Of a stretch of DNA of 25,567 nt, positions 2,310-21,899 are shown in pieces; the first letter of the stretch is position 1, and each line of letters starts with the position of its first letter. Made by a program: the position numbers and the translations under genes. Origin of the DNA: a virus (lineage: Duplodnaviria; Heunggongvirae; Uroviricota; Caudoviricetes); IMG/VR virus record IMGVR_UViG_2925914267_000006, positions 1 to 25,567 of that record; one strand, given 5' to 3'. The notes beneath the pieces were generated by a model, which was given only the letters and a program-made list of their open reading frames with translations, made no database searches and had not been told where the DNA came from.

Positions 2310-2603
2310 ATGAAAAAAATGCTACTCGCTACTGCGCTGGCCCTGCTTATTACAGGATGTGCTCAACAGACGTTTACTGTTCAAAACAAACCGGCAGCAG
2401 TAGCACCAAAGGAAACCATCACCCATCATTTCTTCGTTTCTGGAATTGGGCAGAAGAAAACTGTCGATGCAGCCAAAATTTGTGGCGGCGCAGAAAATGT
2501 TGTTAAAACAGAAACCCAGCAAACATTCGTAAATGGATTGCTCGGTTTTATTACTTTAGGCATTTATACTCCGCTGGAAGCGCGTGTGTATTGCTCACAA
2601 TAA
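2310..2603 (+). CDS. borD: Bor lipoprotein (serum-resistance lipoprotein of lambdoid phages)
   Basis: 97-aa protein with a lipoprotein signal peptide and lipobox (LLITGC); the sequence matches Bor as recalled, and it is convergent with Rz as in lambda. Confidence 0.9.
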   Translation: MKKMLLATALALLITGCAQQTFTVQNKPAAVAPKETITHHFFVSGIGQKKTVDAAKICGGAENVVKTETQQTFVNGLLGFITLGIYTPLEARVYCSQ

Positions 2604-2609
2604 TTGCAT

Positions 2610-2635
2610 GAGTTGCCCATCGATATGGGCAACTC
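2610..2635. terminator. Shared hairpin between the convergent bor and Rz genes (bidirectional terminator candidate)
   Basis: Perfect 10-bp inverted repeat gagttgccca / tgggcaactc with a 6-nt loop, lying between the bor stop and the Rz stop. Confidence 0.5.
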
Positions 2636-3111
2636 TATCTGCACTGCTCATTAATATACTTCTGGGTTCCTTCCAGTTGTTTTTGCATAGTGATCAGCCT
2701 CTCTCTGAGGGTGAAATAATCCCGTTCAGCGGTGTCTGCCAGTCGGGGGGAGGCTGCATTATCCACGCCGGAGGCGGTGGTGGCTTCACGCACTGACTGA
2801 CAGACTGCTTTGATGTGCAACCGACGACGACCAGCGGCAACATCATCACGCAGAGCATCATTTTCAGCTTTAGCATCAGCTAACTCCTTCGTGTATTTTG
2901 CATCGAGCGCAGCAACATCACGCTGACGCATCTGCATGTCAGTAATTGCCGCGTTCGCCAGCTTCAGTTCTCTGGCATTTTTGTCGCGCTGGGCTTTGTA
3001 GGTAATCGCGTTATCGCGGTAATGATTAACCGCCCATGAAAGGCAGACGATGACGCAGATAACCAGAGCATAAATAATCGCGGCGACTCTGCTCACTGAT
3101 CTATCCCCCAA
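2635..3111 (-). CDS. rzpD: Rz i-spanin (start uncertain, possibly GTG near 3096)
   Basis: Has an N-terminal transmembrane segment and a coiled-coil periplasmic domain, and matches RzpD as recalled. It overlaps the endolysin stop and contains Rz1 in another frame. Confidence 0.85.
2694..2876 (-). CDS. rzoD: Rz1 o-spanin lipoprotein embedded in Rz
   Basis: 60-aa ORF lying wholly inside Rz in another frame, with a lipobox (VVVGC) and a proline-rich stretch ([13 protein letters not shown]). Confidence 0.85.
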
Positions 3112-3626
3112 CAGGCTAATGCGCTTTCCTGGTCACGACGAATAACCTGTCCATAGCAGTTATTTGAACGTATGCGGCAATCGCGCCCACCATCTTTTAT
3201 CCACCAGCGAATCGCCTCGCATGCACCTTTACGATCACCGGCATTCAGCCGCTTATAAAACGTCGACGGGAAACACTTACCGGGGCCAATGTTATAGGGA
3301 CAAAATGACGCGATACCCGCTTTCTGTGGTTCGGTCAGTGGCACTTTAATATTGCGCTCCACCCATGCCAGCGCCTTATCCCGTTCAATGGCGTTAACCT
3401 GGTCGCATTTTTCCTTCGACAGTTTCATACCGGGAAAAACGGGTTTTCCATCCACCACCGTGGCACCCCGACAGATGGTCCAGATGCCGGAACCATCGCG
3501 GTATGCCGTTGTGTGGTTACCTTCTTTTTCATCCAGAAACTGGTCGAGAATATCAGGCGCAGGCGCACCGACGGCAATCAGTGCCAGAACGGCAGCCGAC
3601 AGGCCGTATCTGATTTTTGCGTTCAT
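3093..3626 (-). CDS. rrrD: SAR-endolysin (T4-type lysozyme fold with an N-terminal signal-anchor)
   Basis: The N-terminal hydrophobic SAR segment ([15 protein letters not shown]) is followed by an E-x8-D-x5-T catalytic pattern ([16 protein letters not shown]). It lies between the holin and Rz. Confidence 0.88.
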
Positions 3627-3969
3627 GGATATTTATCAGGATTTATCGGTTTCTGAACCCTGGATATGTTTATCTGTCCCGGCCTGTTGAATCAGGCAAG
3701 GAATAGTTAAATACAATAGAGAGGATTGTTTATGGACAATAGCACCATTTCTCTACAGGAGTTGCTCGACTGCATTTCCAAGCTTCGGGATGATGTAAAT
3801 GCCCTTACTGTCGCATTTTAATATCTGGCATTCTCAATTCCCAAGGAACAAATGCAACCAACACTGGCATCGCTCCAGCTTGAATCACTCAACCCCAAAT
3901 GGTCCCAGCAACAACAAAATTCTTTCAAGTGGCTGGCGGTATTACTGGAAGAAAAATATGCTGGTGAAA

Positions 3970-4314
3970 TTACCATTTCGGCGGAGTCTTCAGAGAACCA
4001 GTAATTCTTCCCGGTAGCTTTCCTTTGTAGGTTATCCACACATTCTGCGCCTCTAAAATTATGGGGCGCTTTTCCGGCGACAGCTCATCCCCTTCACATA
4101 ACCCGGCAGCAACATCCAGGAAGACCTGTCTGATGCTCCTTCTGGCTGCTGCCTCATAAAACTCCAGCGCGGCACCTTCAACACGGTCCAGCGAGATGTC
4201 CAGGTCAAAAATTTCACCGTCAAAGCGTTTTTTGTCCCGTAACGCTAAAGTTACCGTAACTTTATTCTCAAAATTGCGGATCCCTTTCACAATCAGTTCA
4301 TAGTTTTGAGTCAT
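3970..4314 (-). CDS. Hypothetical 114-aa protein inserted between pinholin and endolysin, possibly DUF1327/YdfR-like
   Basis: The start lies 4 nt after the holin stop, with a GGGGAGAG ribosome-binding site. A comparable holin - ydfR - lysozyme order exists in the Qin prophage by recall; the family assignment is unverified. Confidence 0.5.
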   Translation of the reverse strand: MTQNYELIVKGIRNFENKVTVTLALRDKKRFDGEIFDLDISLDRVEGAALEFYEAAARRSIRQVFLDVAAGLCEGDELSPEKRPIILEAQNVWITYKGKLPGRITGSLKTPPKW

Positions 4315-4318
4315 TGAA

Positions 4319-4534
4319 TTACTCTCCCCGTGCAGCCTTACGCTTGTCTTCTTTAATCTTGAAATAAAGGTTTGTCAGGTACGTCAGCAGGCCAAATACC
4401 AGGCTACCCAGCACACCTATTGCTGCCCACTGTGAGGGCGTGACTTTATCGAGCAGCTGTAAAAACCAGTAACCGGCACTACCTGCTGAGGTGCCATAGG
4501 CGACACCCGTTGTTAACTTATCCATGGATTTCAT
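4319..4534 (-). CDS. essD: Class II pinholin (phage 21 S21-like) with a dual-start motif
   Basis: 71-aa protein [26 protein letters not shown]... with two transmembrane segments and a charged C-terminus; it matches S21/EssD as recalled. Confidence 0.9.
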
Positions 4535-4644
4535 AACCCCACCTCGCAGACAAAGCGGGTGTAAATTGAGGGAATACTACGAAACGTAACAGACTCGGAG
4601 TCAGTGAATAACTCAGGTATTGGGTTATCAGCTAATATCGAGAC

Positions 4645-4680
4645 TCAAAAAATGGAAAAACCCGCTCGACGGCGGGTTTA
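4645..4680 (-). terminator. Rho-independent terminator on the minus strand upstream of the holin (tR'-like)
   Basis: On the minus strand the stem aaacccgc / gcgggttt (6-nt loop) is followed by ttccatttttt, about 110 nt upstream of the essD start. This is the expected position of the late-operon terminator. Confidence 0.5.
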
Positions 4681-5107
4681 AGCTGTGTGACGAAGTAACC
4701 ACTCTTAACAGCATAACCAATTTTTTACGTACGTAAACCACAAAATGATATTTGCGAGAATGCTACCGAGTATTGAAAACACCACTACAAATACATAAGC
4801 AAATCTCAACAAATAACCAACAAATAATTTCCAGTGTTATTTTTAGCCGATTTAAATTGAACCTTCAAATTACAGAGCACTTATAAATAACAGCCGTTAA
4901 TATAAATTGGCTAATAGATTTATTTTTATTCAGCCAAGAGCCATGAATAGGATTCGATAGAAAAAAGTTCAGATAAAAATAGAGATCTACTTCACAAATC
5001 AAACGAGAAACCAAAACTTACATCTTGAAATAATCACATTGATTAGATGAATATTTATCGCGCAGTGACATCATTTTTTAATAATAGTTCAAAAAAAAGG
5101 GCTCACG

Positions 5108-11375: not shown

Positions 11376-11530
11376 AGTTTCACCTCATCAGGTTAACCAT
11401 CACCACCAACGACGCCAATCGACTGGTGGTGAACTGTGCAAGGTTGGCGTAACCGGCTACTCAAATCCGGCGCTCCCGAAGAAGCCCTCACACAGCCCAC
11501 CATAATTTGGGCGTAGCCGTGCTTAGCGCA

Positions 11531-11552
11531 TAAAAAAACCGCTTAACGCGGT
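11531..11552 (-). terminator. Weak minus-strand terminator candidate upstream of the Bro-N-like gene
   Basis: On the minus strand ccgc-gttaa-gcgg is followed by a run of seven T; the stem is short. Confidence 0.3.
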
Positions 11553-11638
11553 ATGCGTTGAGTAGTATTCCGGGACGCCAATCCCGTGTGCCGATTTTGC
11601 GGCAACGCACAGAATATATCCCCAGATAAATCATGTCG

Positions 11639-20685: not shown

Positions 20686-21012
20686 ATGACTAAAAATACT
20701 CGTTTTTCCCCCGAAGTCCGTCAGCGGGCGATTCGTATGGTTCTGGAAAGTCAGGATGAATATGACTCACAGTGGGCGGCAATTTGTTCCATTGCCCCAA
20801 AGATTGGCTGTACGCCGGAGACTCTGCGTGTCTGGGTTCGCCAGCATGAGCGGGATACCGGGGGCGGTGATGGTGGGCTCACCAGTGCTGAACGTCAGCG
20901 TCTGAAAGAGCTGGAACGTGAAAATCGTGAACTGCGCCGCAGTAACGATATCCTTCGCCAGGCTTCCGCTTATTTTGCGAAGGCGGAGTTCGACCGCCTC
21001 TGGAAAAAATGA
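20686..21012 (+). CDS. IS629 OrfA
   Basis: 108-aa protein [42 protein letters not shown]... matching IS629-group OrfA as recalled. Confidence 0.88.
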
Positions 21013-21899
21013 TGCCACTGCTGGATAAGCTGCGTGAGCAGTACGGGGTCGGACCGGTATGCAGCGAACTGCATATTGCCCCGTCAACGTATTACCATTG
21101 TCAGCAACAGCGACATCATCCGGATAAACGCAGTGCCCGTGCGCAGCACGACGACTGGCTGAAGAGAGAGATACAGCGCGTATACGATGAAAATCATCAG
21201 GTGTACGGTGTGCGTAAAGTCTGGCGTCAGTTGTTACGGGAAGGAATCAGGGTAGCCAGATGTACAGTGGCGCGCCTCATGGCGGTTATGGGACTTGCCG
21301 GTGTTCTCCGGGGTAAAAAGGTCCGCACTACCGTCAGCCGGAAAGCCGTTGCCGCAGGCGACCGCGTAAACCGTCAGTTTGTGGCAGAACGACCTGACCA
21401 GCTGTGGGTGGCTGATTTTACTTACGTCAGCACATGGCAGGGCTTCGTCTATGTGGCGTTTATCATTGATGTGTTTGCCGGATACATCGTGGGGTGGCGG
21501 GTCTCATCGTCTATGGAAACGACATTCGTGCTGGATGCGCTGGAGCAGGCGTTGTGGGCCCGTCGTCCGTCTGGCACCATCCATCACAGCGATAAAGGCT
21601 CTCAGTATGTGTCACTGGCCTATACGGAGCGACTAAAAGAAGCCGGATTACTGGCATCAACAGGGAGTACAGGCGACTCGTATGACAACGCGATGGCTGA
21701 GAGCATCAATGGTCTTTACAAAGCGGAGGTAATACACCGTAAGAGCTGGAAAAACCGTGCAGAAGTGGAACTGGCCACACTAACGTGGGTGGACTGGTAT
21801 AACAATCGACGATTGCTGGGAAGGCTGGGCCATACTCCTCCGGCAGAAGCAGAAAAAGCTTATTATGCTTCCATCGGAAACGATGATCTGGCAGCCTGA
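21009..21899 (+). CDS. IS629 OrfB (DDE transposase core)
   Basis: 296-aa protein with IS3-family OrfB motifs ([31 protein letters not shown]). Confidence 0.88.

Follow-up and report, generated by a model that had tools for sequence, protein, structure and literature searches.

In the classical lysis cassettes the holin and endolysin genes are adjacent. Phage 21 and the prophage DLP12 (S21-R21; essD-rrrD-rzpD) combine a holin of Pfam family PF04971 with a lysozyme and with an Rz gene in which Rz1 is embedded. The Qin prophage of E. coli K-12 (essQ-ydfR-rrrQ) carries an additional gene, ydfR, between holin and endolysin; its 103-aa product ends in a tail of its own, and the stop codon overlaps the start of rrrQ, which therefore leaves neither a gap nor a convergent gene at this point. 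A further point of reference is the moron – an accessory gene in the late region of a phage genome that has its own promoter and terminator – of which bor and lom of phage lambda are examples. YdfR itself is still classed as uncharacterised (PMC11551758), and a 2026 study reports that residues 1-72 of the K-12 protein bind the catalytic half of RNase E, and that RNA co-purifies with it (PMC13232886).

The DNA analysed here, hereafter the window, is a stretch of 25,567 nucleotides (positions 1 to 25,567 of virus record IMGVR_UViG_2925914267_000006, Caudoviricetes), and in its wider extent it represents a lambdoid prophage of E. coli that resembles DLP12. An initial annotation drew attention to a 114-aa ORF next to the holin gene, and to two small ORFs on the opposite strand in the gap ahead of the endolysin gene, which it took to be either spurious or an antisense module regulating lysis. 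The features themselves are real, but they were wrongly parsed: the annotation was right about YdfR and wrong about a two-ORF antisense regulator of lysis. Our data lead us, with a good deal of confidence, to a different reading, namely that a leftward DLP12-like lysis cassette with YdfR has a variable slot, that this slot holds a 292-bp cassette with one convergent 90-codon gene of PHROG 2411, and that this gene is broken here by a change of TCA to TAA at codon 30. Neither gene is new: both already have catalogue entries, and RefSeq records the pseudogene state for an identical sequence. The features on which the argument turns are these (coordinates are those of the window).

2310..2603, plus strand: bor, beyond Rz/Rz1 and on the strand opposite to late transcription
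2635..3111, minus strand: Rz spanin (Pfam PF03245, E 2.9e-54)
2694..2876, minus strand: Rz1 ORF embedded in Rz, 60 aa, with a Cys-bearing lipobox-like VVGC
3093..3626, minus strand: phage lysozyme (endolysin), 177 aa (Pfam PF00959, E 1.4e-24; 92% DNA identity to K-12 rrrQ)
3627..3969: gap between endolysin and ydfR, 343 nt
3627..3731: spacer from the endolysin start to the 90-codon gene, 105 nt, with a GAGGA Shine-Dalgarno sequence at 3721-3725
3683..3974: accessory cassette, 292 nt, holding the ribosome-binding site and codons 1-81 of the 90-codon gene
3732..4004, plus strand: pseudogene of the 90-codon accessory gene (PHROG 2411), 273 nt, convergent with ydfR, with an internal stop
3732..3821, plus strand: its N-terminal fragment, 29 aa and stop
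3819..3821, plus strand: the premature TAA at codon 30
3852..4004, plus strand: its C-terminal fragment, 50 aa from internal Met41, as given by the ORF list
3970..4004: tail-to-tail overlap of ydfR and the 90-codon gene, 35 nt
3970..4314, minus strand: YdfR-family protein (DUF1327), 114 aa (Pfam PF07041, E 4.1e-42; PHROG 406, E 1.5e-67)
4319..4534, minus strand: class II (S21-type) holin, 71 aa (Pfam PF04971, Phage_holin_2_1, E 2e-35)

The lysis cassette and its ydfR gene

The ORF list and Pfam together define a complete lambdoid lysis cassette on the minus strand, in the order S21-type holin, ydfR, endolysin, Rz/Rz1. Holin, DUF1327 protein, lysozyme and Rz all score above the Pfam thresholds, and the full phage 21-type set – a holin of the S21 family, an endolysin of the lysozyme family and Rz with its embedded Rz1 – is present; identical or near-identical copies of the holin go by the names EssD or class II holin in RefSeq. 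The N-terminus of the endolysin, rich in Ala, Gly and Leu, looks like a signal-anchor-release segment, and the true start of Rz, judged by its sequence and by the annotation of a related locus (L001), is likely to be the GTG at 3096, a codon overlapping the stop of the endolysin gene. A terminator-like hairpin lies upstream of the holin gene (4658-4679, minus strand), in the position expected of a tR'-type signal, and further features of the surroundings – bor downstream of the cassette, a porin gene upstream – fit a prophage like DLP12. The difference from phage 21 and DLP12 is that in the window ydfR and a broken convergent gene stand between holin and endolysin. By analogy with standard lambdoid biology, the cassette would be read leftward in a Q-dependent late transcript; the 343-nt gap would simply be transcribed through, and the endolysin would be expressed by read-through of that transcript.

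It is clear that the 114-aa protein is the product of an ordinary YdfR/DUF1327 prophage gene. An HMM search places it within DUF1327 with a score of 142.8 bits against a cut-off of 25, the match covering residues 1-112, and RefSeq names its orthologs 'YdfR family protein'. As the initial annotation had it, the ATG stands 4 nt past the holin stop (…GGGGAGAG TAA TTCA ATG…) and is served by a ribosome-binding site, of the GGAG type, within the 3' end of the holin gene. Its statement that Qin has a DUF1327 gene, ydfR, at this very spot is borne out too, the same 4-nt spacing being found in K-12. Likeness to Qin extends to the S21-type holin and to the endolysin DNA, and includes residues 1-74 of YdfR, which are 81% identical; the C-terminal tails are unlike. 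The resemblance of the window protein to the RNase E-binding protein of K-12 is thus a resemblance of sequence over those 74 residues. YdfR-114 found no match at E up to 1 among the PADLOC defence models and the named families of NCBIfam. Nor is the arrangement rare: a query of 1,101 nt, made up of holin, ydfR, gap and endolysin start, was at least 80% covered in 1,032 of 5,426 complete E. coli genomes (the gap alone was covered in 1,052), and what we see is a routine DUF1327 arrangement present in many prophages.

One gene in the place of two small ORFs

The gap ahead of the endolysin gene, initially put at 340 bp, is present and measures 343 nt. Its first 44-56 nt (3627 to about 3682), which are also the first part of the 105-nt spacer, form the endolysin leader; this leader is found in cassettes that do not have the 90-codon gene as well, and in many genomes matches are limited to positions 1-44 or 1-56 of the gap query. 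In alignments the spacer as a whole shows 84-100% identity between lineages.

The first of the two plus-strand ORFs is exactly as it had been described, both in coordinates (3732-3821) and in its 29-residue peptide, and has GAGGA 6 nt upstream of its ATG. The second does overlap the 3' end of ydfR, by 35 nt, but it runs from 3852 to 4004 and encodes 50 aa, where 3853-4011 and 52 aa had been given. Both share one frame (3852-3732 = 120), and all that lies between them is the TAA at 3819-3821 and 10 sense codons. Because the same stretch is a single 90-codon ORF in close relatives, the 29-aa and 50-aa ORFs are not independent. A three-way DNA alignment attributes the stop codon to a C-to-A change at 3820 in what is TCA (Ser) in the relatives; within the 273-nt ORF the window departs from L001 at two bases only, the change at 3781 being Arg17 to Lys, a common allele, and the change at 3820 being Ser30 to stop. 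A 60-nt probe centred on the lesion has an exact match in just 3 of 405 genomes, with the remaining 402 differing at one base or more, and the lesion is therefore recent and rare. RefSeq marks an identical sequence in strain EC1722-1 as a pseudogene ('internal stop').

Good ribosome-binding sites had been claimed for both ORFs. The claim stands for the first; the AAGGA before Met41, the supposed site of the second, is coding sequence of the intact gene. Gene callers have predicted the 50-aa C-terminal piece in other genomes also. In the window the 90-codon gene is non-functional: the 29-aa stub would be the sole certain product, and reinitiation at Met41 is conceivable though unsupported.

In relatives the picture is that of a gene. 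The ORF is uninterrupted at eight of the loci compared (L001, L002, L004-L007, L011 and L012), keeps its position and length even in lineages that share no more than 85-93% DNA identity with the window across the gap, and is also present in three phage genome records; strains with an intact copy include E. coli B (BL21, Rac region), E. coli C and CFT073. RefSeq annotates the uninterrupted 273-nt ORF as a 'hypothetical protein' (WP_000370550 and kin). Conservation in related prophages thus holds for the stretch, as a single 90-codon gene and not as two ORFs, and the suggestion that the small ORFs are spurious fails for the relatives, where the stretch is a conserved protein-coding gene.

Substitution patterns give evidence for selection at the protein level. 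Pairwise dN/dS, taken over the 79 codons outside the ydfR overlap, lies between 0.15 and 0.35 in 20 of 21 comparisons, the outlying value of 0.78 belonging to one close pair with 15 differences only; in the two other forward frames it is about 1 or above in most comparisons. Pooled pN/pS is 0.31 in the frame of the gene against 1.06-1.39 in three of four control frames. The fourth control, the antisense frame whose wobble positions coincide with those of the gene, gives 0.26, an expected by-product of that geometry; because this frame also scores low, the assignment of strand rests on the integrity of the ORF, on its start signals and on a paralog carried by plasmids. Within the overlap (3970-4004) selection follows the other gene, pN/pS being 0.36 in the ydfR frame versus 1.93 in the 90-codon frame. 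Purifying selection on the intact gene of the relatives is thus shown. Many frameshifted or truncated copies exist, which is to be expected of genes in prophages that are decaying, and selection on the gene in cryptic prophages is for this reason not strong.

The variable slot and the family of its occupant

Comparison with cassettes that do not have the gene sets the limits of the inserted DNA. Against the 116-aa YdfR variant (L034; ending '…ITGSLKTPPESQP') – a very common form with a 63-nt spacer before the endolysin – BLASTN breakpoints fall at 3682 and 3975, with 292 nt here in place of 19 nt there and with flanks that are 96-98% identical. Against variants of 176 and 183 aa (L037 is the 176-aa form) they fall at 3670 and 3978; here YdfR is extended, by some 62-70 residues, and a different convergent gene of 86 aa, PHROG 2572, is present. 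Against the 103-aa YdfR of K-12 Qin they fall at 3637 and 4108, with 472 nt in the window and 92 nt in Qin. A cassette of 472 nt including YdfR residues 75-114, as the Qin comparison implied, was dropped because in the 116-aa and 176-aa variants, which do not have the gene, the tail is retained up to '…KTPP'. The 116-aa variant was judged the better comparison and defines the cassette as given here, of about 292 nt. Homology to the plasmid paralog spans 3715-3971.

From these comparisons it follows that the junction of ydfR and endolysin is a variable slot, which is either empty or occupied by a small convergent gene, of which at least two unrelated kinds exist. The PHROG 2572 cassette occupies the same slot, with breakpoints a few bases apart, and its gene, too, is convergent with ydfR and overlaps the 3' end; its sequence, in contrast, could not be related to that of the 90-aa family (hhalign E 0.21). 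Kinship with other convergent genes in equivalent slots was also considered and is unsupported (hhalign E 0.005 at 7% probability for L028, E 0.2 for L031). In phage phiSTEC1575-Stx2k, what comes after the block of holin, ydfR and 90-codon gene is a relic of the endolysin start, and beyond it stands a second, unrelated lysis cassette.

Presence or absence with sharp boundaries, among phages that are otherwise collinear, is a property that the 90-codon gene shares with the lambda morons: like bor and lom it is a small accessory gene inside a late operon that similar phages may have or lack, and like bor it stands on the strand opposite to late transcription. The promoter and terminator that define a moron, by contrast, did not come to light. 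A consensus scan of 3400-4700, which weak or factor-dependent signals may escape, found neither a plus-strand sigma-70 consensus promoter nor an intrinsic terminator for the gene; the nearest plus-strand promoter-like site is at 3050-3078, some 650 nt upstream and inside the Rz/endolysin overlap. A candidate picked out by eye, TTGAAT (3687) and TACAAT (3712) separated by 19 nt, was rejected: the spacer is too long, a transcript starting there would be deprived of the Shine-Dalgarno sequence, and the first T is absent in L004 and L006. Rfam returned no family match in the region. Further, by eye, no signal peptide or lipobox is visible in the 90-aa product, in contrast to Bor and Lom.

The intact ortholog at L001 matches PHROG 2411 over its full length (1-90 of 90, E 1.6e-59). 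The copy in the window, with its TAA at codon 30, does not have the uninterrupted frame of a functional member and is a pseudogene of this family, that of WP_000370550. A paralog about 60-63% identical in protein and 73% in DNA is found on some 72 plasmids, where it lies downstream of an AIDA-type autotransporter gene and has no lysis genes nearby; conjugative plasmids make up 70 of the 75 matches. The family comprises 64 clusters at 90% identity, nearly all labelled Escherichia or Shigella, and it is a narrow one, since a profile run against 1.84 billion representative proteins yielded no more than 18 clusters. AlphaFold2, given an alignment of 29 sequences, predicts a three-helix bundle (helices 8-34, 38-52 and 59-77; mean pLDDT 81) followed by a disordered tail, and the predicted bundle had no informative fold or family match. 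Against Pfam the 90-aa protein gave sub-threshold noise only; it and the plasmid paralog had no match at E up to 1 among NCBIfam named families and PADLOC. Our search of the literature returned nothing on the 90-codon ORF or its family, expression included.

More distant homologs were recovered as profile matches with 31-38% identity in the family alignment, together with a Yersinia copy at 55%, and were placed on their contigs; a locus search based on a narrower alignment yielded a single locus, from Yersinia, in each collection. They lie in the following settings.

L018-L020: between tail genes M and L of Atlantibacter-type phages
L021: between tail genes M and L of another phage
L016: near terminase genes
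L027: in a Yersinia massiliensis prophage, adjoining a tail gene
L024: on a chromosome, between dinI and bssS
L015: adjoining a P-type ATPase gene

Since homologs are found in tail operons, on plasmids and on chromosomes as well, there is no specific tie of the 90-codon gene to lysis.

Rival readings and a possible pair

A critical issue is whether the plus strand of this locus has a role in the control of lysis. The proposal would be that the two ORFs, or the transcript that carries them, act as an antisense regulator, either by pairing with the ydfR/holin message or the endolysin message or by way of two regulatory peptides. The position of the locus in the middle of a lysis operon, the convergence of the ORFs with ydfR across the 35-nt overlap and the purine-rich stretches upstream of both ATGs all lend themselves to it. 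We nonetheless regard it as extremely improbable. The two ORFs are fragments of one gene, split by a nonsense mutation that 3 of 405 genomes carry, and the second purine-rich stretch belongs to the codons of the intact gene; scans of the locus turned up nothing resembling a promoter or terminator on the plus strand, and Rfam has no family that matches it; homologs reside in tail operons, on plasmids and at chromosomal sites that are unrelated to lysis; and lysis cassettes of the Qin and 116-aa YdfR types, which do not have the gene, are very common. Measured against an antisense-RNA regulator or a type I toxin-antitoxin locus, the plus strand again falls short: besides the promoter, terminator and Rfam match that the searches failed to find, it evolves as protein-coding sequence. 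Given that the 90-codon gene is non-functional in the window, no antisense module for the control of lysis operates there.

A doubt of the opposite kind is whether the plus-strand ORF is a gene even in the relatives, or whether its conservation reflects constraint on the minus strand – from the 5' leader of the endolysin, from the end of ydfR or from a mirror ORF. The failure to find a promoter for the plus-strand gene would agree with this, as would a minus-strand mirror ORF of 110 codons that is open in L001 and whose frame has a pN/pS of 0.26. A low value is, however, what coinciding wobble positions would produce in any case, and the mirror ORF shrinks to 68 codons in L007 and to 61 in the plasmid paralog, and it lacks both an ATG start and a conserved Shine-Dalgarno site; as a true gene it was ruled out, being broken in L007 and L010. 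The plus-strand ORF, on the other hand, spans 89-92 codons with its ATG and GAGG kept throughout, and the plasmid paralog keeps it with no lysis genes around. The predicted product of the plus strand also folds with confidence in the model. Constraint on the minus strand is thus a very improbable source of the conservation, and a protein-coding gene, intact in relatives and broken in the window, is the reading that we retain.

What the intact protein might do is a matter on which the partners of its distant homologs offer a clue. In all phage contexts the homolog is opposite in strand to the nearby late genes and is convergent with a small late-strand ORF, which it overlaps by 7-47 nt. The C-terminus of this partner reads …ITYKGKLPGRITGSLKTPPKW in YdfR-114, …SIKGNIFSDQIFGDLKKPPSY at L018, …VIKGGQLRYKRLTGDILIPLES at L016 and …GELYSEKITGSLFAPL… at L027, and a loose motif is common to YdfR and the partner tails (ITYKGKLPGRITGSLKTPP versus SIKGNIFSDQIFGDLKKPP, VIKGGQLRYKRLTGDILIP and ELYSEKITGSLFAPL). 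The codons for 'ITGSL' differ at four of five positions between E. coli and Yersinia. The small gene that separates M from L in the Atlantibacter phages joins a constant N-terminus of 47 residues to at least six alternative tails, and only the YdfR-like tail occurs together with a PHROG 2411 homolog.

These observations raise the possibility that the 90-aa protein and a partner of the YdfR type form a functional two-gene pair, in which the small protein would bind or control the C-terminal tail of the partner, convergent overlapping transcription would make the two mutually exclusive, and a late protein that binds RNase E might be modulated. The recurrent convergence and overlap, the shared tail motif, the differing codons beneath 'ITGSL' and a selection in the overlap that follows the frame of the partner are all in keeping with such a pair, as is the binding of K-12 YdfR, through residues 1-72, to the catalytic half of RNase E and its co-purification with RNA (PMC13232886). 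The weight of the evidence nevertheless leaves the pair doubtful. Cassettes in which this YdfR tail occurs but the 90-codon gene does not (the 116-aa variant) are very common, the tail is also found with an unrelated convergent gene (the 176- and 183-aa variants), plasmid and chromosomal homologs do without any such partner, and the motif was drawn up post hoc from five short sequences, with the partners at L021 and L022 fitting it poorly.

Stated in its widest form, the idea would be that the PHROG 2411 protein and the partner tail ('KG…ITGSL..P' in YdfR, with look-alikes in Yersinia, Atlantibacter and other enterobacterial phages) are a conserved and co-inherited pair able to settle at the 3' end of one or another small gene of a late operon, be it in a lysis, tail or packaging region, and that the small protein, which the lysogen would express from the antisense strand, controls a late partner that touches RNase E. 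This we think rather unlikely as it stands. Were it true, the pair would be an uncharacterised kind of regulatory or accessory module of phages, of which the window holds a dead copy only. For the intact relatives we tentatively picture a small, soluble three-helix protein that would be made from a plus-strand transcript of its own, opposite to Q-dependent late transcription in the manner of bor and lom, and that may perhaps work by way of its convergent partner's C-terminal tail.

The window itself matters little: its arrangement is common, and the odd pair of ORFs is explained by one nonsense mutation. Two modest by-products of the analysis reach beyond it. The junction of ydfR and endolysin in cassettes of the S21 type takes alternative small convergent genes, and one of these, the PHROG 2411 gene, is under selection at the protein level and is found on conjugative plasmids and in other phage operons as well. 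In light of the report that YdfR binds RNase E, a possible effect of the pair on lysis or on RNA decay is worth asking about.

The mirror ORF opposite the 90-codon gene

An open reading frame lies antisense to the 90-codon gene of PHROG 2411, in the window and in L001, a relative in which that gene is intact:

Window 3818-4039, minus: mirror ORF
L001 4208-4540, minus: mirror ORF

The two frames are in such register that their wobble positions coincide. The mirror frame runs to 73 codons in the window as against 110 in L001; one and the same C-to-A change, at 3820, puts a stop into both frames, giving TAA on the plus strand and TTA, read as TAA, on the minus. Because it is interrupted in L007 (a further relative with an intact 90-codon gene) and in the plasmid copy, we regard the mirror ORF as probably a shadow ORF.

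Hairpin and RNA elements in the window

Outside the lysis genes the window holds the following structures:

4658-4679, minus: hairpin resembling a terminator (stem of 8 pairs followed by a run of T)
11422-11507, minus: C4 antisense RNA (Rfam match, 72 bits)
11532-11604, minus: isrK Hfq-binding RNA (Rfam match, 61 bits)
20967-21083, plus: ALIL pseudoknot (Rfam match, 121 bits)

The hairpin lies upstream of the holin, between a porin gene and the lysis cassette – the position expected for a tR'-type late terminator – and is followed by an AT-rich stretch (approximately 4740-5100). The C4 and isrK matches adjoin each other, a pair typical of the P1/P7-type antirepressor control region within a prophage; the pseudoknot is where an IS3-family insertion sequence has its frameshift signal.

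Copies and comparable genes in other genomes

Genes related to the 90-codon gene, or similarly placed opposite a convergent ORF, were found at these loci:

L013 2006-3905: whole block from the holin through ydfR, the 90-codon gene and the endolysin to Rz (Rac prophage of E. coli B)
L012 1785-3803: two lysis modules in tandem (Stx2k phage phiSTEC1575-Stx2k)
L010 7001-7270 (plasmid pBCE049-1) and L008 1507-1785: paralogs, approximately 60-63% identical
L024 4001-4279: distant homolog of 92 aa, between dinI and bssS
L018 4261-4476, L028 3001-3216 and L031 3001-3177: small gene flanked by tail genes M and L (Atlantibacter-type phages)
L028 3182-3433, minus: uncalled 83-codon ORF convergent with the M-L gene

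The E. coli B block is intact throughout and adjoins trkG; CFT073 likewise has an intact, annotated copy (L014), and in E. coli C a 60-nt probe matches and the nonsense allele is absent, so that work on the gene can draw on standard laboratory strains. The first phiSTEC1575-Stx2k module consists of a class II holin gene, followed by ydfR and the 90-codon gene, and closes with what remains of the endolysin start codon plus a hairpin terminator. The second carries two more holins and an M15 peptidase.

The paralog is carried by 72 E. coli plasmids, the majority conjugative; both of the two inspected are IncF. It lies distant from any lysis gene; some 300 nt upstream of it is an AIDA-type autotransporter, accompanied by its heptosyltransferase. 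DNA homology between the prophage and plasmid forms of the 90-codon gene ends at the start of the ydfR overlap. The L024 homolog is chromosomal, in the rne-pyrC-dinI-bssS neighbourhood of an enterobacterium, its surroundings being without obvious prophage.

The M-L gene has an invariant N-terminus of 47 residues (MSLDNKVELLNIEIKELRG…) to which at least six unrelated C-terminal tails are joined, each paired with a different convergent ORF, or with none.

The junction between ydfR and the endolysin gene

Variants of this junction were recovered from two loci:

L037 2501-3239: slot variant
L034 2501-2914: slot variant

One variant combines a 116-aa YdfR with a 63-nt spacer; in another a YdfR of 176/183 aa is overlapped by a different convergent gene, of 86 aa (PHROG 2572). 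The ydfR-endolysin junction is a variable slot, and the breakpoints of all its variants fall within a few bases of '…KTPP'.
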